Assembly: GCA_035515475.1 (NCBI GenBank)
Contig: DATJBF010000008.1
Location: forward strand, 1,899 to 65,898
Origin: Verrucomicrobiia bacterium
GTDB lineage: Bacteria; Verrucomicrobiota; Verrucomicrobiia; Palsa-1439
DNA length: 64,000 nt
Direction: 5' to 3'
In this document: one piece after another, positions 26,852 through 63,005 of the stretch
Position numbering within the stretch: the stretch's first letter is position 1
Layout: each line of letters opens with the position of its first letter
Notes under the pieces: model-generated
Databases searched by the model: none
Seen by the model: the letters and a program-made list of their open reading frames with translations, nothing else
What the model was told of the DNA's origin: nothing
Position numbers and translations under genes: made by a program

Positions 26852-26947
26852 GCCCGAACCAATTTGTCGCAAATTCCCCGGAACACAACAAGAAAGTCGT
26901 GGTTTCCACGCCCAATTCTGAGCGAGCCGCCTAGGATTCACCACCAA

Positions 26948-27013
26948 GATCACGAAGGCCACGAAGCTCCCAAGCTTCAGGGAAACCTTCGTGCTCTTCG
27001 TGCACTTCGTGGT
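26948..27013. repeat. Array of five CACGAAG/CTTCGTG heptamers (2 direct + 3 inverted) in the divergent sir-era intergenic region
   Basis: atcacgaaggccacgaag...cttcgtgctcttcgtgcacttcgtgg; same heptamer as at 23072-23095. Confidence 0.55.
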
Positions 27014-27025
27014 AAACTCCGAGTC

Positions 27026-28661: not shown

Positions 28662-34436
<5,775 letters not shown>

Positions 34437-44263: not shown

Positions 44264-44329
44264 CGGCCCGCAACCGCCGTGGAGTTTGAGGCTTGATTGT
44301 TGGCGAAGCTTTCTTAAGTATCTGCACGC

Positions 44330-45112
44330 ATGCAACCCGATCTGACTTCTTTGGCGGGCAAGTACGGCCTTGTTTTTGGCGTGGCCAATCGGCGCTCGAT
44401 CGCTTGGGCAATAGCCAAGACGTGGCAGGAGGCGGGCGCCAAATTGGCGTTTACGTACCAGGGCGAGCGGCTCAAGGAGAACGTTGAAGAACTCGCCGGC
44501 AATTACGGAGCGGATACGCCGATGTATCCCTGTGACGTCACCCGTGACGACGATATTGCGCGGGTCTTCCAGCAGGTCAGGAAGGATTTCGGGAAGTTGC
44601 ACATTCTGCTGCATTCGGTTGCTTTCGCTCCCAAGGAGGCGCTTGAAGGGGAGTTCATCAATACTTCGCGGGAAGCATTTCGGATCGCCCATGACGTGAG
44701 CGCCTATTCATTGGTTGCCTTGGCGCGGGCGGCGGTACCACTGATGACCGATGGCGGGTCGATCGTGGCGATGACGTATCATGGCTCGGTGAAGGTGATT
44801 CCGCACTACAACGTGATGGGGGTAGCGAAGGCGTCGCTGGAAGCTTCGGTGCGGTACCTCGCTTACGATTTGGGACCGAAGAAGATCCGTGTCAATGCGA
44901 TCAGCGCTGGTCCCGTGAACACGCTGGCGGCCCGCGGTATTTCTGGTTTCACCCAGATGCTCAAGTATTACGAGGAACGGTCTCCCTTGAAGCGGAACAT
45001 TGAGCCGCAGGAACTTGGGGCAGCTGGGCTGTACCTCGGTAGTGATATGTCGACAGGGACAACCGGGCAAATCCTGTACGTCGACAGTGGCTACGAAATC
45101 ATGGGGATGTAG
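44330..45112 (+). CDS. fabI: Enoyl-[acyl-carrier-protein] reductase (NADH)
   Basis: 'GKYGLVFGVANRRSIAWAIA', 'Y...K' active-site region 'MTYHGSVKVIPHYNVMGVAKASLE'. Confidence 0.9.
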   Translation: MQPDLTSLAGKYGLVFGVANRRSIAWAIAKTWQEAGAKLAFTYQGERLKENVEELAGNYGADTPMYPCDVTRDDDIARVFQQVRKDFGKLHILLHSVAFAPKEALEGEFINTSREAFRIAHDVSAYSLVALARAAVPLMTDGGSIVAMTYHGSVKVIPHYNVMGVAKASLEASVRYLAYDLGPKKIRVNAISAGPVNTLAARGISGFTQMLKYYEERSPLKRNIEPQELGAAGLYLGSDMSTGTTGQILYVDSGYEIMGM

Positions 45113-45185
45113 ATTGGTTTCAAACCACGTTTTTCGGTTTGCCTCGGAGCCTTGGTGCCGATTTTCTCCCGCCCGACGGTAAAGG

Positions 45186-45476
45186 TTGGCCAAATTGGTA
45201 GTTGGCGTTCTACAAATTGAACTGTCGATTCCGTCAGCGAACAGCCTGAAGGCTAAGAGGCAGGTTCTCCATAGTCTTAAAGACCGCATTCGTAGGCACT
45301 TCAACGTATCGGTGGCCGAGGTCGGCGAAAACGACTTATGGCGGAGCGCAGTACTAGCAGTAGTCGTGGCAAGCAACGATAAGCGGTTCGCTAACAGGAT
45401 TCTGTCGAAAGTGGTAGATTTCATCGGGGACTCGCATGATATCGTCGTGGACGACTATCAACTCGGTATAATCTGA
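45186..45476 (+). CDS. DUF503 family protein
   Basis: 96 aa, 'LQIELSIPSANSLKAKRQVLHSLKDRIRRHFNVSVAEVGENDLWRSAVLAVVVASND' pattern typical of DUF503. Confidence 0.5.
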   Translation: MAKLVVGVLQIELSIPSANSLKAKRQVLHSLKDRIRRHFNVSVAEVGENDLWRSAVLAVVVASNDKRFANRILSKVVDFIGDSHDIVVDDYQLGII

Positions 45477-45610
45477 CATGTTCAGCACGCAATTCCTGCC
45501 ATGTTAACCTTGATGGGTTACTAGGCCGTAGATAGCTTGACAAAGCTGGGTTGGAAGGCTATTAACATGTTCAATTGACACCGCCACGTTCGCGGTAGGC
45601 TGCATTTCGC

Positions 45611-45626
45611 TGGCTTGGAAGGTGCT
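45611..45626 (+). promoter_or_regulatory. Putative sigma54 (-24/-12) promoter upstream of the bEBP gene, within a 24-nt direct repeat pair (45545-45570 / 45611-45636)
   Basis: cTGGCttggaaggTGCtt: GG and GC separated by the canonical 10 nt; a second, degenerate copy gcTGGgttggaaggctatt lies 67 nt upstream. Confidence 0.35.
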
Positions 45627-45715
45627 TGACATGTCGGGAGCGCTGTCGAGGTGCAGTGTTAACATGGACGGGGCTGGCGATCGCATGGTTTACGCGTAGG
45701 AATGGCACGCTGGGC

Positions 45716-47107
45716 ATGCCAAGAGCGAAAATACTCGTAGTCGATCCGGACGTTTCATGGACCTTGAAGTTGTCCGAACTGTTGATTCAGGATGACTGCG
45801 AGGTGTTCTCCGCGAATTCCGTCCACGACACAATGCTTCTGCTCGATGCGCGGAGCATTGATATTGTGATCGCGGAGATCAATATGCCGGATCAGGACGG
45901 GGTGGCGTTCTTGGAGCAGATTCGCCAGGTTTTCCCAGAGATAATCGTCTTGGTACATACGGTGAGAACCTCCGTGGAGCAGGCAGTGCGGGCGACGAAG
46001 TTGGGGGCCTTCGATTACGTACAGAAATCTGACGATCCCGCCATGCTGGCAACGCTTCGCCAGAGGATCGGTCAGGCTGCGCAAGAATTGGGTATGATGG
46101 TGCGCACGGGCGGGACCGATCCACGCAACCGTGGTTTGCTGGCCGTACCGGCTCACGGTTTTTACGGAATCATCAGCCAAAACTCACAGATGCGCGACAT
46201 CTTTGAATTAATCCAGACCATTGCGGACAGCTATGCCAACGTGCTCATCCACGGCGAAACGGGAACAGGCAAGGAGCTGGTCGCCCGCGCCATCCACGAG
46301 GCGAGCGGGCGACACGGAAAGGCGTTTGTGACGCTGGATTGTACGGCGTTGGCCCGTGAGCTTTTGGAGAGCGAGTTGTTCGGTCACGAGAAAGGAGCTT
46401 TTACGGGGGCCGTCGAGCGCCACGTGGGCCGGTTCGAACGGGCCAACACCGGTACGCTATTTCTGGACGAGGTCGCGACCATCCCGTTGAATGTGCAGGC
46501 CAAGTTGCTCCGCGTGCTGCAAACGCGGACCTTCGAGCGGGTGGGCGGGTCGAAGCCAATTTCCGTGGATGTGCGGATTATCGCGGCGACAAACCGTCCA
46601 CTTGAGCAAGGCGTTGCCGAGGGAACCTTTCGCGAGGACTTGTACCACCGGCTCAACGTTGTGCAGATCGAGTTGCCGCCGTTGCGCGACCGGACGGAGG
46701 ACGTCCCGCTCTTGGCGATGGAGTTTTTGCGGCGTTTCGCGCGGCAAAACGGGAAGGAACTGCGCGGCTTTACGGATGCGGGCATTGACGTGCTTTGTCG
46801 TTACAATTGGCCCGGCAACGTCCGTGAGTTGGAGAACGTGGTTCTGCAAGCCGTTGTGCTTGCGAAATCGTCTCTCATCGACGCCAGCGACCTGCCCAAA
46901 CGAATCACCGAGTCCAAGCCGGTATTGGGCGCGGCATCTCCTGCCTTGGCCGACCAGCTCGGCGAACCCGAAAAACAAATCCTCATCAACGCTTTGCGTC
47001 AGCACGCTGGCAACATCAAACGGACCGCTGAAATCCTGCAAATCAGCCGGACCACGCTCTATGCGAAGCTGAAGAAGTACCAGATCAATCCCGACCTCAT
47101 TCGGTAG
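45716..47107 (+). CDS. Sigma54-dependent transcriptional activator (NtrC family bEBP) with atypical receiver (Glu at phospho-acceptor position)
   Basis: Receiver 'ILVVDPD...IDIVIAEINMPDQDG'; AAA+ 'IHGETGTGKELVARAIH', 'GAFTGA', 'ESELFGHEKGAFTGA' GAFTGA motif; C-terminal HTH 'RTAEILQISRTTLYAKLKKY'. Confidence 0.85.
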   Translation: MPRAKILVVDPDVSWTLKLSELLIQDDCEVFSANSVHDTMLLLDARSIDIVIAEINMPDQDGVAFLEQIRQVFPEIIVLVHTVRTSVEQAVRATKLGAFDYVQKSDDPAMLATLRQRIGQAAQELGMMVRTGGTDPRNRGLLAVPAHGFYGIISQNSQMRDIFELIQTIADSYANVLIHGETGTGKELVARAIHEASGRHGKAFVTLDCTALARELLESELFGHEKGAFTGAVERHVGRFERANTGTLFLDEVATIPLNVQAKLLRVLQTRTFERVGGSKPISVDVRIIAATNRPLEQGVAEGTFREDLYHRLNVVQIELPPLRDRTEDVPLLAMEFLRRFARQNGKELRGFTDAGIDVLCRYNWPGNVRELENVVLQAVVLAKSSLIDASDLPKRITESKPVLGAASPALADQLGEPEKQILINALRQHAGNIKRTAEILQISRTTLYAKLKKYQINPDLIR

Positions 47108-47138
47108 GGGGTAGACTGGGCAGAGCCGCCCCGCGCGA

Positions 47139-48380
47139 TTAAGTATCGACTCCTGCCGGTTGGCGGACGGTCAGTCTGGCGAAGTGGAGATAGAGCAGGC
47201 CGAGAACGAACACAGGAGCATTGTTGGCTGCTACAGACAACCAACGGGACACAGTGATTACTGGTTCGGTGTCCGCGGTATTGAAAGCCAACAGGCTTAC
47301 GACAACCAGCACTACGAGCCAGACGCGTTGGAGTCCGCGTGCGGGCGCGATCTCCGCAGAAACACGGAGCAGCGGATAAATCATAAACACAAAATAGTGT
47401 GCCCAGGCAATGGGGGAAGCCACCAAAGACGCTACCAACAGCAAACAAAAGGCTGAGTCTTGGTTGACTGCAGTTTTCGGCCGCGACGCGCGGCTGCAAC
47501 ACCACCACGCGAATCCGCCGACGGCGACTGCGGAGGTCATCTCCGCAACCAAGGCAAAGCCGGGGACCGGCAACATGCCTTCGCTCAGGCGGCCAATGAG
47601 GAACGGTACCGTATAATTGGAGCGAACACGCTCCGCGAATGTTTGCAGGAGAGGAAGCGCGTGGTTGAAGAAAGAAATCCAGGCAGATGCCGTGGCGACC
47701 GTGGCAAAGCCGAGCACGGCAGCGAAAGCCAGAGCGGAAAGTCTCAACCGCTCTCGCCCCCGTTCAGCGAGTGCCGGCAACGGTACGAACACGAGGGGAA
47801 ACAATTTCGCTGTGCCTGCCAGGGCAAACGCCACGATGGCCCAACCATTCCAACCGCGTCGCCATAACCAGTAGCCGAGCATGACCACGGCCAGCAACGG
47901 AAGCTGCACTTGGGACAACCACAAGTGGTAGAGCACGGGGTACGAGAATAACGTCAACCCCAGAGCGAGCGTCCAGGCCCCGGCAGAAAGTCGGCCGCGG
48001 ATGACGTGCCAGGCGATTCCGAAGATGACAACCAGGCTGGCGACCTCGATGGTGACGTAGCACCAAAACGCAGTTGCGATTGGCACGGCAGCCAACGGGC
48101 GAAGCAACCACATGAGGAACGGAGGGTTCGTTTCCCGTTCCATCAAGTCCGTTGTGGGAAAACCAATGTGCCGGGCGTACTCGTGCAGCGGCACTGCGTA
48201 CACATCGGTCCCGCGTCTCAGCAGCCCGGCTGATAGATAGAAGTGTGCGAAGTCCGGCTTGAACATCCTTTCTGGCAGGAACGTGGCGCAGGAGTGGATC
48301 GCCGTTACGGCAAGTCCCACACCCAGCCCGGCCATGAGCGCGCCCCGCAGTCGCTTGAGATTGTATCGGCTGCCGTTCAT
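47139..48380 (-). CDS. DUF2029/GT87-like polyprenol-phosphate-mannose-dependent glycosyltransferase-like membrane protein (ORF to 48626; Met start ~48380)
   Basis: ~10 TM helices; promoter-distal (3') gene of the minus-strand paralog operon, with stop/start overlaps. Confidence 0.45.
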   Translation of the reverse strand: MNGSRYNLKRLRGALMAGLGVGLAVTAIHSCATFLPERMFKPDFAHFYLSAGLLRRGTDVYAVPLHEYARHIGFPTTDLMERETNPPFLMWLLRPLAAVPIATAFWCYVTIEVASLVVIFGIAWHVIRGRLSAGAWTLALGLTLFSYPVLYHLWLSQVQLPLLAVVMLGYWLWRRGWNGWAIVAFALAGTAKLFPLVFVPLPALAERGRERLRLSALAFAAVLGFATVATASAWISFFNHALPLLQTFAERVRSNYTVPFLIGRLSEGMLPVPGFALVAEMTSAVAVGGFAWWCCSRASRPKTAVNQDSAFCLLLVASLVASPIAWAHYFVFMIYPLLRVSAEIAPARGLQRVWLVVLVVVSLLAFNTADTEPVITVSRWLSVAANNAPVFVLGLLYLHFARLTVRQPAGVDT

Positions 48381-49948
48381 GGGCCTCCGTGCGCGATCTC
48401 CTGTCGGGTGTAGACAGCCGCAACGCGGTCCGCGTACGCGAGTCGCCAGTCTGCCCGCAGACCAAGCAGAGTATTCAGCGCGTGGTCGCGCGGCAGAATC
48501 GTCCAACCGATGTGATGGACCCGAAAGACACCCTCCCACTGCGGTTCGGCCTTGTCGACAGTCCGGAAATCCTTGATCAGATTTCCGCCGTAAAAGTCTG
48601 TCCGCCCGTCCATGAACACCCGCCACTCCGGCGCGGCCAGCACCAGGTAGCCACCCCAGCGGCGGTCGTTAAACATCTCTCCCCGTATTGCATCGGGATG
48701 GGCATGGAGAAACTCGACGGCGGCCACTGGAAAACAGTTTGGCAAAATCCCGGCGGTCACAATCGGCGAGCCGCCGAACCATTGAGGTCTTGCTGCTGAG
48801 GCAACAAGCATTGCCACGCAACCGACCGCCAACGCACGTCCATCGGCAATCGCATCCCACTGGCCGACTGCTTCGGATAGCCGCCGACCCAGGCGCGGGA
48901 AAACTCCCTCGGGCGCGGTGTGGATTGAGGCCGTCCAATGTTCGGCCAAGATCGGGGTCAGAACCAGGGCGAGGATGGACGCGTGGCGGACCGAGTAGAG
49001 CGAGGCGCAACCCCAAATGCTCGTCACGACCACATCGCTGGGTCTCAGCCGTGGCCGAGCGATGATCAGCAGTAGTCCGAACACCAGGGCTTGGGCGAGA
49101 AATCCACGCATCCAGAATCCATGGAAGTCGGGCGAGCGGAATTCACTGCTCAGCGCGACGACCTCATGGTGGCGCAGAATGCTGAGAATGTACGCATGAA
49201 GTTTCCAACCGTTGGGGTTGAGGAATGTGGCCAACAAACACGCGCCACCGAGCAGAGTTAGCGCCCGCATCTTGGAGTATTCTTGGATACGGTCCGCGTC
49301 ACGCCCTCGGAGTGCGGCGACGGCGCTGCCGATCCAGAACGCGGCGATCAGGACGAGTCCTCCGAAAAATCCGCCGTGTAGATTTGCCCACACCGCCGAC
49401 AATGGCGGCAGGACCATGAACAGGCGTTTCGCCGACACGCGTCCACAATCAAACGCCCGGAGCTGCCAGAGGAAGATCACGATGAGCACGAGCGTCCAAA
49501 GGTGCGGTCGCGCCAGCCAATGCAGCGAGGTGCCCCACGCTGCCAGGAGCACCAGTACGAGGGAGAGCAACGCGTTGTTCCCTTCGGCCAGGAGCAGCTG
49601 GTATAGCAACCACAGACTTGTTGTGATCAGGGCCGCGGCCAGGAGCACAATCCCATTCCAGCCCAACGCGTTTCCGGCGGCGGCATACAGCACTTGGCTC
49701 AACCATTCCATGGCGATCACGGGTGCGCCCCATCGCGTATGCGAGAACGGATCGCTCCGGATGATCGCGCGATGTCGGATCATCCAGTCCCCCATGCGCC
49801 AATGAAGGCATGAGTCGCCATCGACGTTGATGAGCGCGTAACGCCACTGGCTGAGGTTCAGCGTCAAGAAGATCGTCAGCCACAATACGACGCCCACGCC
49901 TGGCAACCACCAGCGGCGTTGGCGGCGGTTTTCCCCGCGCGTGATCAT
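48377..49948 (-). CDS. GT-C-like polytopic membrane protein, tandem paralog A (ArnT/PMT_2-like first-loop motif, C-terminal periplasmic domain)
   Basis: 'DGDSCLHWRMGDWMIRHRAIIRSDPFSHTRWGAPVIAMEWL', 'NLHGGFF', 'FLNPNGWKL', C-terminal 'MFNDRRWGGYLV...VFMDGRTDFYG'. Confidence 0.55.
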   Translation of the reverse strand: MITRGENRRQRRWWLPGVGVVLWLTIFLTLNLSQWRYALINVDGDSCLHWRMGDWMIRHRAIIRSDPFSHTRWGAPVIAMEWLSQVLYAAAGNALGWNGIVLLAAALITTSLWLLYQLLLAEGNNALLSLVLVLLAAWGTSLHWLARPHLWTLVLIVIFLWQLRAFDCGRVSAKRLFMVLPPLSAVWANLHGGFFGGLVLIAAFWIGSAVAALRGRDADRIQEYSKMRALTLLGGACLLATFLNPNGWKLHAYILSILRHHEVVALSSEFRSPDFHGFWMRGFLAQALVFGLLLIIARPRLRPSDVVVTSIWGCASLYSVRHASILALVLTPILAEHWTASIHTAPEGVFPRLGRRLSEAVGQWDAIADGRALAVGCVAMLVASAARPQWFGGSPIVTAGILPNCFPVAAVEFLHAHPDAIRGEMFNDRRWGGYLVLAAPEWRVFMDGRTDFYGGNLIKDFRTVDKAEPQWEGVFRVHHIGWTILPRDHALNTLLGLRADWRLAYADRVAAVYTRQEIAHGGP

Positions 49949-51522
49949 GGCTTGCGGAGATCGCGTGCGTAGACGATGGCCACTTTATCGGCGTAAACAC
50001 GGTGCCAATCGTCTCGCAACGCGAGCAGGTTGTTCAATGCATGCCCACGCGGCAAAATGGTCCAGCCAACGCGGTACTTCTCCAGCACGGTTTCCCAGTC
50101 GCGATGAACTTGGTTTACCGCGTCGAATTCCCGGATGAGATCCGCCCCGTAGAAGTCGTTGCGTCCGTCAACGAAAACCTTATGTTCGGGCATGGCCAAA
50201 ATGAAATACCCGCCCCAGCCATAGTCATTAAACATCTCACCGTTCACGGCCCGGGGATGCGCGGCGATAAAGCCGGTCGCTGCGACGGGGAAGCGATTGG
50301 AGAGGATGTTGGTAGCTATGAGCGGATCGCCCCCGACGAGTCGGGGCTTGGCCATGACTGCGAGTAGTGCGACCAGGACAACTGCGGTTATTACACGCCC
50401 ATCGGCGGTCCGGTTGATCTGAGTAAGGTTTGCGGACAGCCGGCAATACCGGTCAAGCGCAGGACTTGGGTTTCGGCTCCGCAGTGCAGTCTGCCAGTGC
50501 GCGGCGAGGATGGGCGTCACCATGAGGGCGAAGATGGGGACGTTGCGGGCCGCTAGCAACGCCAGCAACCCCCAAGTGGCGACGATCGCCATGTCCGTCA
50601 CACCAAGTTTTGGTCGCATAATGAGGAGCGTCAGCGCCACCAACGTCAATTCAGCGACAAAGCCGTGTGCGCCGCTCGCATGGAAGTTCGGCGAACGAAA
50701 CTCGTTCGCATACCGGCTGACGAAAGGATCGCGGAGGAACTCCAACACGTGGGCCGGCAGTTTCCAACCGTTCGGGTTGAGGAGCGTGGCCAACATGCAA
50801 GCGAGCCCAAGTGCGGCCAGTACCACCAATCTCCTTCGCGCGGCGAACCGTGCTGTTGGCTCGGCAACAAGAACCGTCACACCGTCTCCCACCAAGAACG
50901 TTCCGGTGACGACGAGGCCCGTGAAGAAGGCGCCGTGCAAGTTCACCCAGAGGATCATGAGAGGCACGAGACTCAAGAACAGCGTTTGCGCGCGCAGGCG
51001 CCCAAGATTGAACCACCGCAGTTGCCAGGCGAACAGGACTGCGAACAAGTGTGTAAACAGGTGGGGACGCGCCAGCCAATGCACCGAGCAAGACCAAGCC
51101 GCCACGAGTATCAGCGCGGTAGAGAGCAAGGGTTCGTTTCCCTCAGCCAGGAGCTGGCGGTGCAGCACGCATAAGCAGGTCGCGATCAACACGGCCGATA
51201 GCAGGACAATGCCATTCCAACCGAACGCGTCCCCCAGGGTGGCGAATGCCACCTCCGCCAGCCACTCCTTGGAAATCAGGGGGGCTCCGTCACGCGTGTG
51301 AGAGAACGCGTCGACTCGAATCACGGCGCGGTGTTGAATCATCCACTGGCCGATCCGCCAGTGCAGGCAGGGGTCGCCGTCGGCGTTGATGAGCACCAGC
51401 CGCCATTGGGTCAGGATCAATCCAAGAAAAAACGCCAGCCAGATGAACTGACTGAACGATGGGAGCCACCAATGCCGCGGCTCGATGACAGTGGGCACGG
51501 AAGCGGACCCGGGGGTGCTCAT
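49945..51522 (-). CDS. GT-C-like polytopic membrane protein, tandem paralog B
   Basis: 'DGDPCLHWRIGQWMIQHRAVIRVDAFSHTRDGAPLISKEWL', 'NLHGAFF', 'LLNPNGWKL', 'MFNDYGWGGYFI...VFVDGRNDFYG'; ATGA overlaps with both neighbours. Confidence 0.55.
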   Translation of the reverse strand: MSTPGSASVPTVIEPRHWWLPSFSQFIWLAFFLGLILTQWRLVLINADGDPCLHWRIGQWMIQHRAVIRVDAFSHTRDGAPLISKEWLAEVAFATLGDAFGWNGIVLLSAVLIATCLCVLHRQLLAEGNEPLLSTALILVAAWSCSVHWLARPHLFTHLFAVLFAWQLRWFNLGRLRAQTLFLSLVPLMILWVNLHGAFFTGLVVTGTFLVGDGVTVLVAEPTARFAARRRLVVLAALGLACMLATLLNPNGWKLPAHVLEFLRDPFVSRYANEFRSPNFHASGAHGFVAELTLVALTLLIMRPKLGVTDMAIVATWGLLALLAARNVPIFALMVTPILAAHWQTALRSRNPSPALDRYCRLSANLTQINRTADGRVITAVVLVALLAVMAKPRLVGGDPLIATNILSNRFPVAATGFIAAHPRAVNGEMFNDYGWGGYFILAMPEHKVFVDGRNDFYGADLIREFDAVNQVHRDWETVLEKYRVGWTILPRGHALNNLLALRDDWHRVYADKVAIVYARDLRKP

Positions 51523-53045
51523 TGTATCTTGTGGAAGATGGTGGCGACTTCGTTAGAGTACGCGAGTTTCCAGTTCGGCAGCAATGCGAGTGCGAGATTC
51601 AGTGGACGGTCGGTTGGCACGAGCGTCCATTCCACCTTGTATTGCTGGAGAACTGCCAGCCAGTTCGTGGTGAGCTGGGAAGTTTCATTGTATTGACGGA
51701 TCAGCGGCTCTCCATAGAAGTCCGTGCGCCCGTCCACAAAAACCCGATGCTCCGGGAGCGCGTACAGCAAGTACCCCCCCCAAATGTATTCATTGAACAT
51801 GTTGCCTTGGAACTGGCCGGGGTGTTGCTTGATGAATTCCACCGCGGCGATCGGCCATTTCTTCGCGGGCATTTCTGTCGGGCGCGAGACGCCGACCAGG
51901 GCGACCGCGGCAATCACCACGACGAGCAACGAGCCACGCGAAATCTCATGGATCTCCCGAAGCCGTCCGGATAAACGCCGCCCCCAGTGGGGCGACGCGT
52001 CCGCCAGAGCGGTGGCGAGAATCGGCGCTGTGAAGATGGCCAGCAACGGAATGTTGCGGCCGGCATACAAGGCTAGGTACGTCCAGCCGATGAGAAGAAT
52101 TCCGGAGGCGGCCGACAAACGCGGTCTCGCCAGCGCCAGCGTGAAGAACGTCAATGCCAACCACGCCAGGAACCCGCGTGAATCGGGCGCATGAAAATCT
52201 GAAGAAGCATATTCCGCCAGCCAGTTCGTCAGATAATCCGAGCGAAGGAACTGCAGATTGTGCAGATGGAGTTCGTAGCCGTTCGGGTTGACCAACGACA
52301 CGCCCGCGCACAAGAGGGCGACGCCGCTGAGAACGGCCAGCTTTCGTCGCGCGGTGGCCCATCTGGTGGCGTCGGCGCGGACAAGGGGCATTTCAATAAG
52401 GGCACCCAGCCAGTACGCGCCCAGCGTGATGAACCCGGCGAGGTAGCCGCCGTGCAGGTTGACCCACAATACCATGAGCCCGGCAAGCGTGATGGCGAGA
52501 CGGCGGGCCGATGCGCCGTGCTCGAAGCGTCGCAACGCGTCGCCCCACAGCGCAGCCAAGAGAAAACTGAACGCGTGTGGTCGGGCCAACCAGTGTGTGC
52601 AGGCGGCCCATGCTGCAGTGAATGCTACAAAGACGGCCACCGCGTGATTGCCCGTCTCGCGCAGCAATTGATGATGTAGGAAGGCGAAGGTCGTGGCGAT
52701 CACCAGCGCGGCGACCACGACCAGCCCGTATAATCCACCAAGGCGGCCGGCAGTCGCGAGGATGATTTCGGAGAGCCATTCCTTGGAGATAATCGGCTGG
52801 CCAAAGCGGGTGTGCGAAAAGATATCAGTGCGAATAATTCGTTTGTGTCGGAGCATCCATTCGCCCACGCGCCAGTGCATACACGCGTCGCCGTCGCTCG
52901 AGACCATCATGACGCGCCACGGTTGCGCAAGAAGGATGAGCAGAATCACAAGCCACAACCATTGGGTCATCGACGGCACGAGCCAATGCCAAAGACGGCG
53001 AGATGGAGACGCGATTCTGGTAGGGCCCTCTGCCAAAGCTGCCAT
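51519..53045 (-). CDS. GT-C-like polytopic membrane protein, tandem paralog C
   Basis: 'DGDACMHWRVGEWMLRHKRIIRTDIFSHTRFGQPIISKEWL', 'NLHGGYL', 'LVNPNGYEL', 'MFNEYIWGGYLL...VFVDGRTDFYG'. Confidence 0.55.
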   Translation of the reverse strand: MAALAEGPTRIASPSRRLWHWLVPSMTQWLWLVILLILLAQPWRVMMVSSDGDACMHWRVGEWMLRHKRIIRTDIFSHTRFGQPIISKEWLSEIILATAGRLGGLYGLVVVAALVIATTFAFLHHQLLRETGNHAVAVFVAFTAAWAACTHWLARPHAFSFLLAALWGDALRRFEHGASARRLAITLAGLMVLWVNLHGGYLAGFITLGAYWLGALIEMPLVRADATRWATARRKLAVLSGVALLCAGVSLVNPNGYELHLHNLQFLRSDYLTNWLAEYASSDFHAPDSRGFLAWLALTFFTLALARPRLSAASGILLIGWTYLALYAGRNIPLLAIFTAPILATALADASPHWGRRLSGRLREIHEISRGSLLVVVIAAVALVGVSRPTEMPAKKWPIAAVEFIKQHPGQFQGNMFNEYIWGGYLLYALPEHRVFVDGRTDFYGEPLIRQYNETSQLTTNWLAVLQQYKVEWTLVPTDRPLNLALALLPNWKLAYSNEVATIFHKIQ

Positions 53046-53077
53046 GGCGCGCAGCTTACGGAGTCATCCGCGAATCT

Positions 53078-55210
53078 TCAATGTTGAACTGCAACGGGCC
53101 GTCGTAAAATCGCAATCAGGTAGAACAGTCCGACGAGAACGACGAGGGCGCGAATCCCGGCCACAAACGAGACGGACTCGAGCAAGCCGCCAACCAATGC
53201 GCCGACGAGATTGGAGCCGAGTGCGCGGGCCTTGTCGGTGCAGGCGGCAAAAGATCGGATGAAGATCAAGCCGGCAAAGAACACCGGCGCGGTCAGAAAT
53301 GCGCTTGCGGCCATGACCTTGGTCGCGCCGGCGAGCGTGTTGAACCTATCGAGGGGAATCAGCGCCAAAGCAGCAACCGTGATCGCCAACCCGGTGACGA
53401 TCAGCCACAGCGGGAGCCGGGACCAGCGCCACGCGACAAAGTTTGAGGCCAGGATCATGACCAGCACTGCTGAAATCACAATGGCGTTGACGACCCACGT
53501 CATGCCGAACAGCAGCGTGGCACGGCTGACCGTCTGTACCTCGAGGAGCAAGAATGCCGCACCCAGCGCAAAGAAATGCCAATCAAACCCCTGCTTGAAG
53601 TCGAATACGCGGCGCTGTGCGAGCATAACAGTACCGAGGATTGCCAGTCCCATCAGGAGATGAAGCTTTGGAATCCTGGCCCGTTCCAAGTACAGATAGG
53701 GCCAGTCGTCGGTCGTGGGGCAAGTTGTTCCTTGGAGATGAAGCGATTCATGGGCGACCACCGAGTGCAGAATTTCATCGGAGATGTTGTTGACGTCGAG
53801 TGGGGCGTTTGCGCAAACGAGCGTGATGCCACCCCCTGTGCCGTACCTCTCGGGGTAGGAAACGCGGTAAGCGATTGGGTTGTGGCCAAAGACCAGGCGA
53901 ACCTCTCCAAACAAACGGTCTGCGATCCAGGGGCGCAGCGCTTCAAAGTTAAGGATGAGCAACCCATCCTCGGCAAGGAGCCGCCGCAATTCCGTAAGCC
54001 CTTCGGTTGTGTAAACATAATGATCAAGGCGGAGATTGGCGTAGGAAGAAGCGAGCGTGTGGGAGTCCAGTAGACCAAGCCAAATGGCGTCGTACGGACC
54101 ACGCGCCTGTTTGTAGAAGGCACGGGCGTCGTTGACGAGCATGTGGACCCGCGGCGAGTCATAGGGATGCTCGGGATGAAGCTGCTTGCCGAGCGCGTAG
54201 ATACGCGGGTCGATCTCGACGCAATCAATCTGATCGACCCCGTGACGGAGTGCCGCGGCAGCATTGTTGCCCGCGCCCGCACCCACAATGAGCATGCGGC
54301 GGATGTGTTGTTTGAAGTGGAACGGGAGGTTGTAGTGACTCCGCTCAGCAGTCTGGAGATCGAAGAGCGCTGGATGCGAGCGGAGGAAATCCGGTGAGAG
54401 ATTGATGAGCGATTGATAAAAGGTGTTGTTCACTTCCAGCCAGTAACCCTGTCGGATGCGGTTCGCACCTTCGCCGACGTACATCGGCCAGATCGTGAGC
54501 TTTTGATACGGCGACCAAATGACGCGCAGCGCACGCGATTGACCGAGTGATACGGTAACGGCCGCAGCAGCGGTCAAGCCAACGGCCAGCCAGGCGCGCC
54601 TCCATCCACACAGCGGAAGCGTGGCCAAGATGGCGGCTGCGACGGCGAGCCAGATTGCGGGTGGAGCCGACCACCAACTGAGTACATTGAACAGCCAAAC
54701 ACCGACCAAGCTGCCAGCGATGTTGATCGAATAGGCGTGAATGACTTGCGGATGCTCTTCCAAGGCGCGGCCGAGAATCTGTCCCATCGGTACGAACGTC
54801 AGCACCAGCAGATACATCAACACCGCCACAATTACTACGGCCCCCGAAACTTCGGGAACCGAGCGACTCCAGAGGACGCCCCAGACGGGCGAATCTTCAA
54901 GACTTCCCAACGCAGTCGTGATCTTGCCCAGATCGAACGACGGCAGTCTGAAGGGATTGCTGACGAGTACCACAAGCAAGAGGAGATTGATTCCACATCG
55001 AGAGATGGATACAGGCTTTGAGGCAAGATAGCAGCCGAGTCCGACGCCAAAGAAGCAAACTACGAGTACCAGATTGCCAAGATAGGCGAAGATGCGAATC
55101 TCCGTCCCGATCCAGCGAATCAGCACGAGTTCCAAGTACAGAATCAGGGCGCTGACGGTGAAGATTTCAAAATCGCGTCGGAGAAGCGTGTCATCACACA
55201 GGTCGCACAT
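53078..55210 (-). CDS. Membrane-embedded spermidine-synthase-fold protein (polyamine aminopropyltransferase-like domain flanked by TM segments; 'fused membrane/SpeE-like' family); ORF to 55345
   Basis: N-terminal ~7 TM, central 'RMLIVGAGAGNNAAAALRHGVDQIDCVEIDPRIYALGKQ...VNDARAFYKQARGPYDAIWLGLLD' SpeE/AdoMet-fold motif, C-terminal ~5 TM. Confidence 0.65.
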   Translation of the reverse strand: MCDLCDDTLLRRDFEIFTVSALILYLELVLIRWIGTEIRIFAYLGNLVLVVCFFGVGLGCYLASKPVSISRCGINLLLLVVLVSNPFRLPSFDLGKITTALGSLEDSPVWGVLWSRSVPEVSGAVVIVAVLMYLLVLTFVPMGQILGRALEEHPQVIHAYSINIAGSLVGVWLFNVLSWWSAPPAIWLAVAAAILATLPLCGWRRAWLAVGLTAAAAVTVSLGQSRALRVIWSPYQKLTIWPMYVGEGANRIRQGYWLEVNNTFYQSLINLSPDFLRSHPALFDLQTAERSHYNLPFHFKQHIRRMLIVGAGAGNNAAAALRHGVDQIDCVEIDPRIYALGKQLHPEHPYDSPRVHMLVNDARAFYKQARGPYDAIWLGLLDSHTLASSYANLRLDHYVYTTEGLTELRRLLAEDGLLILNFEALRPWIADRLFGEVRLVFGHNPIAYRVSYPERYGTGGGITLVCANAPLDVNNISDEILHSVVAHESLHLQGTTCPTTDDWPYLYLERARIPKLHLLMGLAILGTVMLAQRRVFDFKQGFDWHFFALGAAFLLLEVQTVSRATLLFGMTWVVNAIVISAVLVMILASNFVAWRWSRLPLWLIVTGLAITVAALALIPLDRFNTLAGATKVMAASAFLTAPVFFAGLIFIRSFAACTDKARALGSNLVGALVGGLLESVSFVAGIRALVVLVGLFYLIAILRRPVAVQH

Positions 55211-56736
55211 GAGGGGGTGATTCAAGCAGAGGTCTTCGGTGGCTGCAAACAAACTTTCAAGGTCGGGACAATCTGTTTTGCGCTGGCTTGTGGTTGTTCG
55301 CGCCCAGAACGCCACCCCCGAGGTTCGGCGGCGAACGAGGGCCATACGAGCCGTAGCCGAATCCCGTTAAGCCTCGTGCGGTGAGTCCGGCTGGTGATGG
55401 AAGCAACGCATGCTCGCTCCGGCGGCGTCATCGGCTACGACGTTTTGAACTAGAGCCGACCCATCAAGTCCGCTAGTGGAGAGCAAACCGTAACGGCAGC
55501 CATGAATTGGTTACGGGGCGGGACCGTCTGTAGCACGGCGGACGGCGGCTTGGGCCGTGAGGTGTAGCGTTGCCATTCCATCGCGCAATTGCTCGACGAG
55601 ATTCGAGAGGACCAAGTGACAAGATGGCTGGGGTGGACAGGAGATCTCCAAGGGCTGGCGAGACGGTGCAGCCAGGCGATCGCTGGGCGGGACTGGAGCT
55701 CCTTCTCGTGGCGCGGGCGCTACAAATCCGGTTCCACAGCAGGTTTGTCGACCACTGGAATCGCGCCGAGTCCTCTACAACCATCGGCGAGCACACACTG
55801 TGGCACTGCGTCGGTCCCACATGCCGGACTGCTTTCTTTGCGTCATGCCGGGGCGGTTGGTGAACGTTTTCGTGGCTGTCTTTTGCCGTATGGCTTAGTG
55901 CTCAACACGGAGCTATTGGCACACGCGCTTATCAGGAGGCTGCGAATGAAGAGTGGTCCTATCGATCTCTGCAAATTATAGTGACGCCAATGCTTCTTGG
56001 AAACCCCTGTAAACAAGGGCAAAAAAACATCGTAGGGTGTCACCCAATTATGCAGCCCTCAATAGGAGCAATTGGAACGTGGCACATGCGGAGGTGTTGC
56101 GGGCGCTGGCGCCATGGGATGGGCGATAACGATGGGGACGGCAATGGCTTTGATGATGCAGCCGGGACAGGTGACGGGTGATTCACTGGGGTGGATCATG
56201 CTGGCGGCTGTTGTCACGAGCCACCTGCAGAAGTCCGCTATATTTGGTAAGATAACGACCATCGTGTGCCTTATTGATGCGGCGGTATTTCCGGTTTCGC
56301 TACGCTCGTGGGACAGTACTTTCTTCCATGTAAGGCGTACGGCGCGCGAAGTTGGGGAGCACGATCAGCAACCGGCTCAGATGGTCTATGCGGTCTGCCA
56401 CCAATTGGACCCGAAAGAAGTGGCGATTTGCCATGCGCACGAGTCCTTACCGTTGGGATCGAGGCATCCGCAACCATGCCTGCCCAAGTCCGAACAGTAC
56501 CAACTGGTTGGCGATCCTGTGATGCCGTCCCCCGCGGACACACCAATGATTGGGAATATAAGGCAACCGACTGAAATTCGTTCGCGGAATCGAGCTCACG
56601 GGAAGCGAATGCTGGCGCTGGTTGTTTCGCGCGGCACATCGCCCAAGGATTGCACTCCGCGCTTTGACCTGCGCCACACCAGGCCGTCGCCAGGCGGTTG
56701 GGTCTGTGTGAATACGATACCGGGCAGGACGATGAG

Positions 56737-58368
56737 ATGAGCGGTGGCGAGACAAAACTCGAGCGGCGTGATTGGATGATGGCAGGGGTCTTTCTTACCG
56801 TGGCATTGATCTTGCGAATTCCATTCCGCAGCCATCTGGCATATCACTGGGACGGGGCGCAGTTCGCGCTCGCCATCGAGCACTACGACATGCGAATCAG
56901 CCAGCCGCAGCCACCGGGGTACTTCCTGTATGTGATGCTCGGGAGGTTGGTGAAGCTTTTCGTCGGCGAGCCACACACCAGTCTGATTTGGATAAGCGTC
57001 TTTGCCGGGGCGGCGTTGACGGGGATTGGGTTTCTGTTGGCAACGGCGATGTTTGGTAGGGGTGTCGGCGTAGCAACGGCAATGATCCTTGCGACGAGCC
57101 CGGTGTGTTGGTTTCATAGTGAAGTTGCGTTGACCTCGATTGTTGACGCGGCCTTGGTGACGGCAACGGTACTGGTATGTTGGACGGCCATGCAGCGCGG
57201 CGGGAGATGGCGTGATGTGCTCTGGATGTCAGTATTGTTTGCCGCCGTTGCCGGCGTGCGCCAGCAAAGTGGAGCGATCTTGGCCCCACTGTGGTGTTAC
57301 ACGTTGCTGAGGTTTCGCCATCCACGTCGGTCGAAGATGTTGGGCGCGGCGGTACTGACGGGACTGTTTATCGCACTCTGGCTTGTTCCGATGGTGCGAA
57401 CCACGGGCGGAATTGCGCAGTACCTGGGCGTGCTGCGAGCCAAGGGCCGATTCGACGCCCCACGAACGCCGTGGGGTAGCGGGGGGATACAGGCGCTCTT
57501 AACGAACGTGAGCGTTATCGGACGGGTGTGTTGGGTGGGATTGCTGTTAGCCGCCCTGATTTCGACAGGTGAGTTGGTTCACTGGGTCTTCAGAGAGCGG
57601 CCAGAGGCGAAGAGGAGATTGTACAGTGAGTATGCGGAGCAGATTCGCGTTCTCACATTGTGGATTGCTCCGATGCTGGCATTCTGGCTAGCCATGTACG
57701 TCACGACGCCGGGGTATGTACTGTGCTTTTTCCCTGGCCTCACGATCGTAGCAGGAGTTGCCATCCGCCGGTGCGCTGGCCGACTCAACCGATCCTCTTA
57801 CGGACGCAGCGTTACGGCCGGGCAGTGGTCGGGCGCCGTCACAGCGTGGCTGACTCTCGGCTTCGTAGTGGGAGCGAACACAGTTGTTTTTGTATGGGAG
57901 CCGAGACTCTCGGTTCCGCTGTTGGCGGACTTACCTCTTACCGCGGTGGAGATTCAGCGGCACGACCGGCAACTCACAGAATGCTTTCGGGTGATCCGAG
58001 AGAAGTTTCGGCCGGAAGATGTGGTCATATACCACAGCGATCAGTTTTTCTACTGGGGGTTTCGTCAGTTCCAATATTATCTCACCGAGTATCGCAACGT
58101 ACTGTTGACGCCTGACGCTTCCTTGGCAGGTGGTCTGCGACGAAAGCAGTGGGTCGGAGAACAGCGGCAGACGATCTTCGCAGATGCAACGTATGATCTA
58201 CCCTGTGAATGGCGTTTATTGGTCGTTCCTCCCGGGCAATCGATCCATATCTTTGGTAGGTACTTCGATGTATCGACGGCAAAGTTAGTACGCACATCGC
58301 GGCCAAAGTTGTACTTAGTTCGAGACCAAGTAGAGTCGACTGTACAGAAACTGAACAACCCCCCGTAA
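56737..58368 (+). CDS. GT-C family membrane glycosyltransferase (ArnT/PMT-like, GT39/83-type first loop); ORF from 56698
   Basis: 'AYHWDGAQFALAIEHYDMRISQPQPPGYFLYVML' matches the DE..Y..A..EM...PPL.YW-type loop; ~11 TM plus C-terminal soluble domain. Confidence 0.55.
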   Translation: MSGGETKLERRDWMMAGVFLTVALILRIPFRSHLAYHWDGAQFALAIEHYDMRISQPQPPGYFLYVMLGRLVKLFVGEPHTSLIWISVFAGAALTGIGFLLATAMFGRGVGVATAMILATSPVCWFHSEVALTSIVDAALVTATVLVCWTAMQRGGRWRDVLWMSVLFAAVAGVRQQSGAILAPLWCYTLLRFRHPRRSKMLGAAVLTGLFIALWLVPMVRTTGGIAQYLGVLRAKGRFDAPRTPWGSGGIQALLTNVSVIGRVCWVGLLLAALISTGELVHWVFRERPEAKRRLYSEYAEQIRVLTLWIAPMLAFWLAMYVTTPGYVLCFFPGLTIVAGVAIRRCAGRLNRSSYGRSVTAGQWSGAVTAWLTLGFVVGANTVVFVWEPRLSVPLLADLPLTAVEIQRHDRQLTECFRVIREKFRPEDVVIYHSDQFFYWGFRQFQYYLTEYRNVLLTPDASLAGGLRRKQWVGEQRQTIFADATYDLPCEWRLLVVPPGQSIHIFGRYFDVSTAKLVRTSRPKLYLVRDQVESTVQKLNNPP

Positions 58369-58530
58369 CATGTGAAGGAGATTGGGCATCAGAGCGCGAC
58401 TGGTGAGAAACCTTGAGAATAGTGTGGGAGAAATATGGTTTGGGGATTGACGGGATAACAGGTTAGCGAGTAAATGGTTACAGCAAGACGGTGCAGTTCA
58501 AGGCCACAAGGGGGACCCGGCGGACGACGA

Positions 58531-58545
58531 TGGCACGTAAGCTGC
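58531..58545 (+). promoter_or_regulatory. Sigma54-dependent promoter (-24/-12) upstream of flp
   Basis: TGGCACGtaagCTGCc vs consensus TGGCACG-N4-TTGCW: GG/GC spacing exact, 1 mismatch; ~70 nt upstream of the flp start. Confidence 0.6.
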
Positions 58546-58618
58546 CTTTAGTGCTTCGTGTAAACGTGGAATGAGTCGGGTGATAAGAACGTGGAAGCCA
58601 GATGAAGGAGGTGAAACG

Positions 58619-58798
58619 ATGAAGAAGTCTCTCCGAAAGCTGTATCGTGGACTGAACGGACGGAAGGGCCAGAGCTTGGTTGAGTATGCGCTGATCTTGG
58701 CGCTGATCGCTGTCGTGGCGATCTTGGTGCTCCAAGGTATCGGCGGCCGAGTGAATAACACACTTGAGAAGGTTAACAGTAATCTCCCCGCGAGTTAG
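58619..58798 (+). CDS. flp: Flp family type IVb pilin (ORF from 58571; Met start 58619)
   Basis: 'MKKSLRKLYRGLNGRKGQSLVEYALILALIAVVAILVL' with Flp motif (G/QSLVEYALI...). Confidence 0.85.
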   Translation: MKKSLRKLYRGLNGRKGQSLVEYALILALIAVVAILVLQGIGGRVNNTLEKVNSNLPAS

Positions 58799-58830
58799 CA
58801 GTGATTCACGGGGGACGGCAAACATGGCTT

Positions 58831-58870
58831 GGGGGTGGAGTGGGCACGGAGCCCCTTCACCCCCTGAGTT
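58831..58870 (+). terminator. GC-rich hairpin downstream of flp (possible intrinsic terminator/attenuator)
   Basis: gggggtg...(loop)...caccccc followed by tgagtttgac; sits between the abundant-pilin gene and the assembly genes. Confidence 0.3.
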
Positions 58871-59257
58871 TGACAGAACCAGTGGCCGTTTCTTAAAGCG
58901 GGGCCGGGCACTTGGGAAGGTCATCGTGACATCCGTCGGTCGTGACTGTAGATAAACGGCACGACGGCAAATCACTAGTTGAGGGGGCTATGGCGTTCAA
59001 ACAGACTCAGATCATTTGCAGTGGAGTCTGGTGGCAGAATCAACCGAGTTTGCGCATGGCCGAAATCGTCGGTCACGTTTGTAGGAGATGGCGCGTGCGA
59101 GAATGCATCCGACCATCGGTGCGGGTTTGGCGGCGGAACGTTGGCCTGTGGTTTGCTGTCTATCAGCGATCCGAAGCCAACAATGTAGTTGCTTTTTTGG
59201 ACAAGAACGAGCTATATCACTGAAAGCTAGGAAGTAGAGTCGAACAAGGAGGACTCA

Positions 59258-60097
59258 ATGGCTAAAAAACCTGGTGCAGGTGGGATCATTTTGGCGGCTG
59301 TCGTTTTGGGTCTTATCGCGGTGTACTTGATCTGGAATCTAGAACGACAGCGCGACAGGCAAGCCAAGAAGAATTGGACGCCGGTTGTGGTTGCCCTTCA
59401 GGATATTCCTGCCCGTTCGAAAGTTACGCGCGAGATGGTGACGCTGACCAGCTATCCGAAGGAATTGATTGCAGCGGGGGCCATTACCGACCCAAAGGAA
59501 GTCGAAGGACGTATCGCACTTTCCCGCATCCGGGCGAAGGATCAAATACGGTCTTCCGATCTGGTTGCTGAGGGCCAGGGACCCAGCTTGGCATACGAAA
59601 TTCCCAAAGGGATGCGCGCCATTGCCATCCAAGCGGGGGAAGTGATGGCCGTCGGCACGGCAGTCAAGCCGGGTGATCGCGTGGACATTCTGGCGACGTA
59701 TCAGAATCCTGTCACGCGACAAGAGACGACCCAGATGATTTTGCAGAACGTTCTTGTGCTGGCGGTCAATAAAGGCCAGACCGACACGCAGGGCAATGTG
59801 GGCGCCAACACTTCCATGACGCTGGCCGTCAAACCCGAGGAGGCTGAGTTGCTGACGGCGGCTGATCGTATCGGCGCGTTGCGAGTGGCGCTACGTCCCG
59901 TGCAGGACAAGACTATCATTCCGAGCACTGGCGTGGAGGCTCGCGATTTCTTAGGCAGCAGGACCTTCGAGATGTCCGCGGAGGCGCCGGACGCTGCGAA
60001 GGCCACGCCAATCATTATCAATCCGCCGTCAAGTCATCAGCGGCCTGAGGTCAAAATATACCGAGGCACCCAGGTGCAGACGGTGACGACCGAATAG
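59258..60097 (+). CDS. cpaB: Flp pilus assembly protein CpaB/RcpC (SAF domain)
   Basis: N-terminal TM, 'VVVALQDIPARSKVTREMV', 'GMRAIAIQAGEVMAVGTAVKPGDRVDIL' CpaB-like. Confidence 0.8.
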   Translation: MAKKPGAGGIILAAVVLGLIAVYLIWNLERQRDRQAKKNWTPVVVALQDIPARSKVTREMVTLTSYPKELIAAGAITDPKEVEGRIALSRIRAKDQIRSSDLVAEGQGPSLAYEIPKGMRAIAIQAGEVMAVGTAVKPGDRVDILATYQNPVTRQETTQMILQNVLVLAVNKGQTDTQGNVGANTSMTLAVKPEEAELLTAADRIGALRVALRPVQDKTIIPSTGVEARDFLGSRTFEMSAEAPDAAKATPIIINPPSSHQRPEVKIYRGTQVQTVTTE

Positions 60098-60140
60098 GGG
60101 CCGGAAGAGAATCTCCAAAGAACGAAAGGACGACACAATA

Positions 60141-61679: not shown

Positions 61680-61728
61680 TATCAGATTGAGTTGAGATTA
61701 ACCGGTATTCTGGGACGCGCCGGAAGGA

Positions 61729-62976: not shown

Positions 62977-63005
62977 AAACGACCTAGGAGGAGGTGCAGC
63001 AGATT

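Follow-up and report, generated by a model that had tools for sequence, protein, structure and literature searches.

Tad/Flp pili are widespread organelles of adhesion and biofilm formation. They are thought to be of archaeal origin, and in archaea the oligosaccharyltransferase (OST) AglB glycosylates pilins. We know of no glycosyltransferase described for Tad/Flp pili, and the literature searched described none. In mycobacterial protein O-mannosylation the work is divided, Pmt initiating and a GT87-type enzyme elongating. A bacterial enzyme that acts on pilins is TfpW, the D-arabinofuranosyl transferase for the group IV pilin of Pseudomonas aeruginosa, a GT-C enzyme with 11 transmembrane (TM) helices that glycosylates Ser/Thr of the pilin (bioRxiv 10.1101/2020.04.19.049825). 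The DNA analysed here is a stretch of 64,000 nucleotides from the metagenome-assembled genome of a Verrucomicrobiia bacterium (contig DATJBF010000008.1, positions 1,899 to 65,898), below called the window. It carries three tandem paralogs, parA, parB and parC, in a minus-strand operon next to a Tad/Flp locus. The operon is transcribed in the order SpeE-like gene, parC, parB, parA, GT87, all at the coordinates first assigned to them. The family of the three paralogs turned out to be tied to such pilus loci in several phyla.

A family of predicted GT-C enzymes

The initial annotation, made from the sequence alone, described the three genes as GT-C-type paralogs, 40–45% identical, with shared motifs, the C-terminal one known from no described family. 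The tandem triplication holds, but the identities are 51% between parA and parB and 39–40% between parC and either of them. The motifs are present, with small deviations in parA (PVIAMEWL and MFNDRRWGGY). The searches placed the paralogs in no described family: neither Pfam (STT3, Dpy19, PMT and PMT_2 included) nor NCBIfam has a model that matches them. A PDB search with a three-sequence profile found no related chain, just chance protein-kinase matches at E≥0.4, and a 38-sequence profile found nothing at E≤10. Thirty homologues (at E≤1 in Pfam) and 10 distant cluster representatives were also without a match in Pfam or NCBIfam. The family profile gave no significant match to the neighbouring GT87 and PMT_2-like proteins, to an 861-residue protein of Pyrinomonadaceae or to other unnamed neighbours.

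The family is large. An exhaustive profile search of 50%-identity clusters returned 29,400 clusters at E≤1e-3, 19,482 at 1e-10 and 5,445 at 1e-30. ParB is 100% identical to the database record VL486_01345, labelled 'hypothetical protein', and this is the label wherever sources name family members. Members are also present in cultured Anaerolinea genomes (L055, L058; the L-numbers denote loci fetched with their flanks).

Given 30 homologues, AlphaFold2 modelled parB with confidence, at a pLDDT of 89.4 and a pTM of 0.89. Comparison with solved structures gave the paired values 15.5 and 427 for human STT3B, 15.4 and 423 for the C-mannosyltransferase DPY19, 14.2 and 381 for ArnT, 13.6 and 409 for AglB, and 13.0 and 396 for PglB, with AftD, ALG12, Pmt4 and others at lower rank. 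Foldseek returned DPY19, AglB, yeast STT3 (TM-score 0.57), AftA and ArnT at a probability of 1.00. The TM core of the model superposes on solved GT-C enzymes and its C-terminal domain matches that of AglB. As modelled, the paralogs are thus enzymes of the GT-C fold, as first proposed, and their class is presumably GT-C_A (OST, DPY19, ArnT, PMT-like).

Hydrophobic segments and loop charges give a topology of 11 TM helices. The N-terminus is inside, and at the C-terminus, on the outer side, an alpha/beta domain of about 120 residues lies in the periplasm. The helix at 354–372 (parB numbering here and below) is amphipathic and was assigned to the cytoplasm. Conservation was read from an alignment of 38 members from Verrucomicrobiota, Acidobacteriota, Chloroflexota, Bacillota, Dormibacterota, Rokubacteria and other phyla. 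In all 38, D48, D50, R152, W192, N194, H196, P250, R326, P412, G437, G438, L496 and W506 are invariant, and H54, G58, D71, P153, G202, G252, E274, F280, F431, N432, W436, Y439 and G453 are conserved in at least 90%. All of these residues are assigned to periplasmic loops or to the periplasmic domain, and they include the motif set DxD, RP, NxH, E, R and FN[DE]YxWGGY. The DxD of D48 and D50, invariant over at least five phyla, stands directly after TM1 in the first extracytoplasmic loop. Residue E274 adjoins residues 276–278, the sole internal stretch with a pLDDT below 50, and in the model this suggests a flexible loop, as expected of a mobile catalytic loop. Read from the sequence, the pattern is that of a GT-C active site facing the periplasm, with a DxD in the first external loop and basic residues that could bind phosphate. 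The family-invariant residues are kept in all three paralogs and no copy looks degenerate, so all three are probably active.

Linkage to Tad/Flp operons

The genome scan found tad genes in the fetched flank at 19 of 69 family loci, and with 12 loci fetched by other routes the count is 21 of 81. Among the Pyrinomonadaceae/Acidobacteriota loci of the scan, tad was in the flank at 11 of 12, and at the remaining one (L043) the contig ends about 350 nt past the family gene. The gene order, read in detail at L054, runs on one strand at 10 of these 11 loci: sigma-54 activator, M50 peptidase, at some loci an 861-residue membrane protein, family gene, two to three flp genes, cpaA, cpaB, cpaC, a tadG-like gene, tadE, tadF, cpaE and cpaF. 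At the exception, L039, tad lies about 4.8 kb off on the opposite strand. Four Chloroflexota-type loci (L042, L064, L066, L069) have tad within 1–3.3 kb.

A scan of soil metagenomes, seeded with a non-Verrucomicrobial clade in a narrow alignment, gave 80 loci that were 85% to 39% identical to the seed. Here the recurrent order is GT87 on the opposite strand, a small GT87-like membrane protein, the family gene, one to two flp genes, cpaB, cpaC, cpaE, cpaF, tadB and tadC. Where at least 1.5 kb was available downstream, a same-strand flp/tad gene followed within 3.5 kb at 38 of 47 loci, with a median gap of 276 nt. Where at least 3 kb was available upstream, a GT87 gene stood within 4 kb at 27 of 39. 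GT87 also lies beside the family in the window, L073, L075 and L077.

Linkage to tad is thus found in at least four lineages, with gene orders that differ. Since tad loci make up far less than 1% of a genome, chance cannot account for it. Genomic ties of the family to flp-tad operons and GT87 genes are thus seen in several phyla. The initial annotation had asked whether the array always stands beside tad genes. The neighbourhood with tad is conserved across phyla, but many loci are without tad, and the tad-linked versions outside Verrucomicrobiia lack the SpeE-like gene.

In Verrucomicrobiia the arrays hold two to five tandem family copies. A neighbour-joining tree divides the copies into two clades, parC-type and parA/B-type, the latter with one to four copies, and the minimal array would therefore be a pair of one parC-type and one parB-type gene. 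The parC-type gene is the most upstream family gene in multi-copy arrays that have an intact copy of it; it is absent in intact form at two loci (L005, L024). Its orthologues are 51–78% identical between loci, and 66–78% in the larger arrays. In the window and about eight related loci the SpeE-like gene immediately precedes the parC-type gene, and further upstream of the arrays there are one to three GT87 genes and a PMT_2-like gene. In most of the loci a sigma-54 regulator stands immediately beside the last gene of the array; in L006, L011 and L017 it is 3–7 kb further away. The flp-tad genes follow wherever the fetched flank is long enough (L020, L022, L025, L030 and the window).

Some unnamed or unusual neighbours were also observed. 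In Pyrinomonadaceae (L054, 4981–9833 on the plus strand, with equivalents at L037, L043, L061, L133 and L156), the sigma-54 activator that precedes the family gene is without a receiver domain, and the M50-family peptidase upstream of the family gene is very short, 164 residues. The 861-residue polytopic protein found at some of the Pyrinomonadaceae loci has no Pfam match and no detectable likeness to the family. The soil clade has a conserved membrane protein of 287–307 residues, without a Pfam match, between the divergent GT87 and the family gene (L077, 1259–2122, plus strand; L075, 7882–8805, plus strand; many of L084–L163). By eye its N-terminal region resembles the start of GT87/DUF2029 proteins, and from its sequence it may be another small GT-C-type enzyme.

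A proposed glycosylation pathway for the pilus and its alternatives

Our leading explanation is a periplasmic glycosylation pathway that draws on lipid-linked sugars and has a tie to the Tad pilus; we consider it reasonably probable. Its parts differ in strength. The paralogs are very likely catalytic GT-C enzymes that use a lipid-linked donor, and a functional tie of the family to the Tad pilus is likely. That the Flp pilin would be the direct acceptor is somewhat less likely than not.

In the proposed pathway the donors of the family enzymes would be sugars on polyprenyl-phosphate carriers, and the acceptor an extracytoplasmic one. A glycan could be started and extended by the four lipid-donor glycosyltransferases of the window operon, working sequentially or as a pair of parC-type and parB-type enzymes, and GT87, with the extra paralogs and the PMT_2-like proteins in Verrucomicrobiia, might extend or diversify it. 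The acceptor would be found within the Tad pilus system, and by analogy with TfpW the exposed C-terminal tail of Flp is the leading candidate. In the soil clade these tails are Ser-rich (...NNVFSSVASSIQ). The MFS protein with its SpeE-fold domain might supply, flip or modify the donor, with S-adenosylmethionine (AdoMet) as a more likely cofactor than its decarboxylated form.

The genes beside the family at three other loci were also counted in favour of this pathway. They are GT2, methyltransferase, family gene, epimerase and a MurJ-like flippase at L079, and PMT_2, Wzy_C-TPR, GT87, PMT, GT87 and GT2 at L073, while at L075 a PAP2 gene overlaps the family gene. The neighbours at L081 are YfhO/DUF2079 and a methyltransferase, and at L080 two PMT_2 genes, Wzy_C-TPR and a lone Flp gene. 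The methyltransferases of L079 and L081 are soluble and hint at glycan methylation.

Several points weigh against the pathway. Most Chloroflexota loci, and L073, L075, L079 and L081, have no tad within 10 kb and show general multi-GT-C glycan clusters instead. The metagenome sample is skewed to relatives of one query, and its loci are phylogenetically dependent. Within the window, flp is about 3.2 kb away from the array, which forms an operon of its own on the opposite strand. The Flp of related loci has no conserved sequon, the mature Flp is only about 40 residues long, and the tails in Pyrinomonadaceae have few hydroxyl residues. Cryo-electron microscopy of the Caulobacter crescentus Tad pilus showed no glycan density (PMC10710030), in an organism that may or may not carry the family. 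ArnT, which has a lipid acceptor, is structurally nearly as close to the model as the protein-modifying GT-C enzymes are, and since it scores nearly as high the fold does not identify the class of acceptor. Donor and acceptor are not readable from the sequence.

The main rival reading, which would account for some of these points, is that the genes are a general envelope or exopolysaccharide cluster, in which the GT-C, GT87 and PMT_2-like enzymes build or decorate a surface glycan or glycolipid (a holdfast-like adhesin, or a modification of lipopolysaccharide or lipid) that is merely co-regulated or co-inherited with Tad pili in the service of attachment to surfaces, with no Tad acceptor. The loci L073, L079, L080 and L081, with the family among glycan genes and no complete tad operon, agree with this, as do the Flp without a conserved glycosylation motif and the C. 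crescentus pilus. However, the family gene is found just upstream of flp on the same strand, at the short median gap given above, across a divergence down to about 40% identity, and again in Pyrinomonadaceae. The linkage has persisted under different gene orders in at least four lineages, and a polysaccharide gene with no relation to the pilus would not usually keep so close and lasting a position at the start of its operon. We therefore regard a cluster without any Tad acceptor as rather unlikely.

The structural matches also bring to mind a divergent bacterial N-oligosaccharyltransferase of the PglB/AglB/STT3 kind, which would move a preassembled oligosaccharide from polyprenyl pyrophosphate to the Asn of N-x-S/T in Flp or other periplasmic proteins. 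STT3B, AglB and PglB are among the top matches, the C-terminal domain is like that of AglB, and a FN[DE]Y..WGGY motif follows the last TM helix. The DxD, the Glu beside the predicted flexible loop and the invariant Arg recall the catalytic set of PglB. The overlapping PAP2 phosphatase gene of L075 and an NNT sequon in the Flp of the window would fit as well. On the other side there is no match to Pfam STT3 and no PDB profile match even at E≤10, the TM helices are 11 and not 13, WWDYG is not literally present, and equally good scores are reached by DPY19 and ArnT, enzymes with monosaccharide-phosphate donors. An enzyme of this kind is in our view very improbable. As a general mechanism for Flp we rejected N-linked, sequon-directed glycosylation, as the N-x-S/T of the Flp in the window is absent from nearly all related Flp pilins.

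To return to the pathway tied to the Tad pilus, it is conceivable that a Tad-dedicated, OST-related family initiates the glycosylation of Flp or another Tad subunit and that GT87 extends it, with the Verrucomicrobiia arrays giving varied glycoforms and the MFS protein with the SpeE-fold domain acting as flippase or modifier. This would be a third independent bacterial route of pilin glycosylation, after PilO/TfpO/PglL and TfpW, and the first for Tad pili, but in this full form the proposal is doubtful. If the family does glycosylate Tad pilins, the GT-C superfamily gains a new member and a large block of unannotated proteins a function. It would also alter the view of Tad pilus surfaces in abundant soil phyla, with bearing on adhesion, phage receptors and evasion of immunity or predators. 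If the acceptor is something else, the family still merits a profile model and a name. The kind of enzyme, a GT-C glycosyltransferase, is already known. The family itself, the OST-like C-terminal domain on an 11-TM core, the tandem arrays and the persistent placement at flp-tad are described in none of the resources and papers searched. No description of this family was found in the literature on GT-C enzymes, tad and pilin, on Flp glycosylation or on MFS/spermidine-synthase fusions.

An MFS transporter with a spermidine-synthase-fold domain

The first gene of the operon had been described as a polytopic membrane protein of spermidine-synthase fold and listed alongside the six GT-C-type proteins. 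The SpeE-fold domain and the TM helices are there, but the protein is an MFS fold (6+6 TM) with the SpeE-fold domain inserted in the central cytoplasmic loop, and not a GT-C protein. For membrane-bound spermidine synthases NCBI also uses the name 'fused MFS/spermidine synthase'. Pfam Spermine_synth matches at E 9e-11, above the cut-off, and there is a weak match to PRK03612 (E 1.8e-9). The best score against an NCBIfam aminopropyltransferase model is 44 bits, compared with a cut-off of 260 for that model and of 250–470 for the equivalog models. The glycine loop reads GAGAGN where the spermidine synthase of plants has GGGDGG. The Asp missing from it is reportedly the residue that selects decarboxylated AdoMet, according to work by Korolev and colleagues in 2002. 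Homologues are labelled 'SAM-dependent methyltransferase' about as often as 'spermidine synthase'.

The membrane-bound spermidine synthases of the PRK03612 type share with this protein a SpeE-fold domain that is joined to a polytopic membrane domain. In the protein of the window the SpeE-fold domain sits between two six-helix MFS halves, the Asp of GGGDGG is missing and the scores are far under the equivalog cut-offs.

Part of the initial annotation was a pathway dedicated to aminopropyl-type modification of the envelope or the pilin, with this protein as its enzyme and the GT-C paralogs as partners. Such an aminopropyl- or polyamine-type pathway is highly unlikely, since against the Spermine_synth match and the position upstream of parC-type genes stand the altered glycine loop, the low NCBIfam score, the mixed labels of the homologues, paralogs about 60% identical that stand alone in unrelated neighbourhoods, and the absence of the gene from every tad-linked version outside Verrucomicrobiia that we examined.

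The protein was also rejected as an obligate partner of the family, on account of the close paralogs that stand alone elsewhere and the versions outside Verrucomicrobiia that do without the gene. Stand-alone paralogs are found at L082 (10001–12172) and L083 (10001–12175). The MFS protein family has several copies per genome, up to three of them on one contig (e.g. P0315, P0351, P0362), which points to a wider role of the architecture in Verrucomicrobiia. In the operon we can only guess that the protein transports, flips or modifies a donor or precursor, by analogy with LtaA, a precedent for an MFS flippase of a lipid-linked sugar. To find a SpeE-fold domain inserted in an MFS transporter is unusual, and the architecture may merit a study of its own.

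Organisation of the window

The features of the operon and of its surroundings are collected in Table 1. In the initial annotation the five genes formed a single operon with stop/start overlaps. Four-base ATGA overlaps are indeed found at three junctions, parC/parB, parB/parA and parA/GT87, but the SpeE-like gene and parC do not overlap and are at least 33 nt apart. The last gene was correctly taken as GT87/DUF2029-like; it matches Pfam GT87 at E 1e-20 with 75 bits (gathering cut-off 25), over profile positions 2–237 of 237. Six GT-C-type proteins had been counted between 47139 and 58368. Five intact ones are inside this range and the sixth, a PMT_2-like protein under the Pfam threshold, is outside it at 42422–44263. 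Counterparts of its gene occupy the corresponding place in L015 and L020. The ArnT/PMT-like gene that adjoins flp does match PMT_2, but below the Pfam cut-off; such a gene adjoins flp also in L020, L022 and L025.

The initial annotation had noted a gap of 1.35 kb (1.39 kb by our measure) before the ArnT/PMT-like gene. It is not empty: remnants of a decayed PMT_2-like gene lie in it and correspond to the intact gene adjoining flp in L020. With the L020 protein, tblastn matched residues 34–89 and 326–523, the middle part (about 90–325) is missing, and there is a frame change within the fragments. An open reading frame (ORF) of 198 residues at 56144–56740, the C-terminal fragment of the gene callers, matches the C-terminal parts of PMT_2-like genes in L007, L014, L020, L022, L023 and L025.

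Table 1. Operon, flanking genes and Tad/Flp locus of the window, with positions counted from its first nucleotide
Feature	Position	Strand	Remarks
MFS-fold transporter with inserted spermidine-synthase-fold domain	53078–55345	-	Operon gene 1; longest ORF 755 residues; gene callers start at 55210, 710 residues
parC (Paralog C)	51519–53045	-	Longest ORF 508 residues; gene callers start at 52970, 483 residues; parC-type clade
parB (Paralog B)	49945–51522	-	525 residues; the member modelled; 11 TM helices predicted, with periplasmic C-terminal alpha/beta domain
parA (Paralog A)	48377–49948	-	523 residues; parA/B-type clade
GT87 (DUF2029) GT-C glycosyltransferase	47139–48380	-	413 residues; last gene of the operon
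Sigma-54-dependent response regulator (REC, AAA+, HTH_8)	45716–47107	+	Pfam Sigma54_activat E 7e-71, Response_reg, HTH_8; converges on the end of the array
PMT_2-like polytopic protein	42422–44263	+	613 residues; Pfam PMT_2 E 4.2e-4, 21.0 bits, below the cut-off of 26.1
PMT_2/ArnT-like polytopic protein	56737–58368	+	543 residues; Pfam PMT_2 E 1.7e-4, 22.3 bits, below the cut-off of 26.1; upstream of flp on the same strand
Decayed PMT_2-like pseudogene fragments	55705–55874 (two frames, approximate) and 56129–56722	+	tblastn with the PMT_2-like protein of L020
Sigma-54-type -24/-12 element TGGCACGTAAGCTGC (TGGCAC-N5-CTGC)	58531–58545	+	Upstream of flp
Flp pilin	58571–58798	+	Likely start 58619; G/QSLVEYALILALIAV processing and Flp motif
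cpaB	59258–60097	+	Pfam RcpC
cpaC secretin	60141–61679	+	Pfam Secretin
cpaE/TadZ-like ATPase	61729–62976	+	Pfam CbiA/ParA; N-terminal receiver domain, Response_reg E 2.6e-17
cpaF ATPase	About 63005 to window end (64000)	+	Reading frame with Walker A motif; runs off the window

The flp, cpaB, cpaC, cpaE and cpaF genes next to the array were confirmed. The Tad/Flp locus has an Flp prepilin with the G/xxxxEY motif, RcpC/CpaB, a secretin, CpaE/TadZ and the CpaF/TadA ATPase; tadB/C and cpaA were not found in the window, and may lie beyond its end. No GT2 or GtrA-type gene was found in the window either, and an Rfam search of 44000–64000 gave no match.

An element of the form TGGCA[CT]-N5-NTGC precedes flp by 41–90 nt in the window, L020, L022 and L030; L025, the fourth of the related Verrucomicrobiia flp loci, is without it. 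The weight of the element rests on its position and conservation, because the whole window has seven sites that fit the sigma-54-type pattern and about six are expected. A search upstream of the array operon found none, and none was seen upstream of flp in the Pyrinomonadaceae loci, although a sigma-54 activator adjoins there. Judging from these sites, flp in the clade of the window may be driven by the sigma-54 response regulator beyond the far side of the GT-C array.

The remainder of the window consists of housekeeping genes, some of which have features of their own. An ORF of 1,924 residues (28662–34436, plus strand) combines UvrA interaction and DNA-binding domains with ABC/AAA P-loop matches that recur throughout its length. 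This is about twice the usual length of UvrA, and it may be a tandem UvrA-UvrA fusion. At 24602–27973 two ORFs of about 1,100 residues overlap on opposite strands. The Era-like GTPase and KH domains of the plus-strand ORF are confined to its last 300 residues. Its long N-terminal extension may therefore be an artefact, and the real gene may be the ORF on the minus strand. A Ser/Thr protein kinase of 1,129 residues (8269–11658, plus strand) carries C-terminal DUF4097 ('toastrack') and Big_5 domains, and three ECF-type sigma-factor-like genes (2354–7643) precede it.

Comparison with known systems

The enzymes that the model resembles can be told from the family in other ways. DPY19 (GT98), ArnT (GT83) and PMT (GT39) differ in their C-terminal domain and motif set, and the family has no Pfam Dpy19, PMT or PMT_2 match. 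STT3, AglB and PglB (GT66) showed no likeness to it at the sequence level. They are 700–970 residues long with 13 TM helices, compared with about 500 residues and 11 TM helices in the family. Their WWDYG and DK/MI motifs are absent as such, and the neighbouring pilins are without a conserved N-x-S/T.

Mycobacterial O-mannosylation is more similar in its layout. It combines an initiating, protein-directed GT-C enzyme with polyprenyl-phosphate-mannose-dependent enzymes of the GT87 family outside the cytoplasm, and a pairing of family gene and GT87 recurs at the loci described here. The initiating family would be a different one, however, and the mycobacterial system has no counterpart of the link to a pilus operon or of the tandem paralog arrays.

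TfpW serves type IVa pili and not Tad/Flp pili. Its C-terminal domain is a TPR domain, whereas the family has a small OST-like alpha/beta domain without a TPR match in Pfam. The motifs DDX and YX6PFX7P of TfpW also differ from DxD, RP, NxH and FN[DE]YxWGGY. TfpW modifies its pilin in the periplasm from a lipid-linked donor (bioRxiv 10.1101/2020.04.19.049825), and like the family it has 11 TM helices, with an acidic motif in its first loop and a C-terminal domain in the periplasm. Its gene, too, stands by that of the pilin, immediately beside the major pilin gene pilA.

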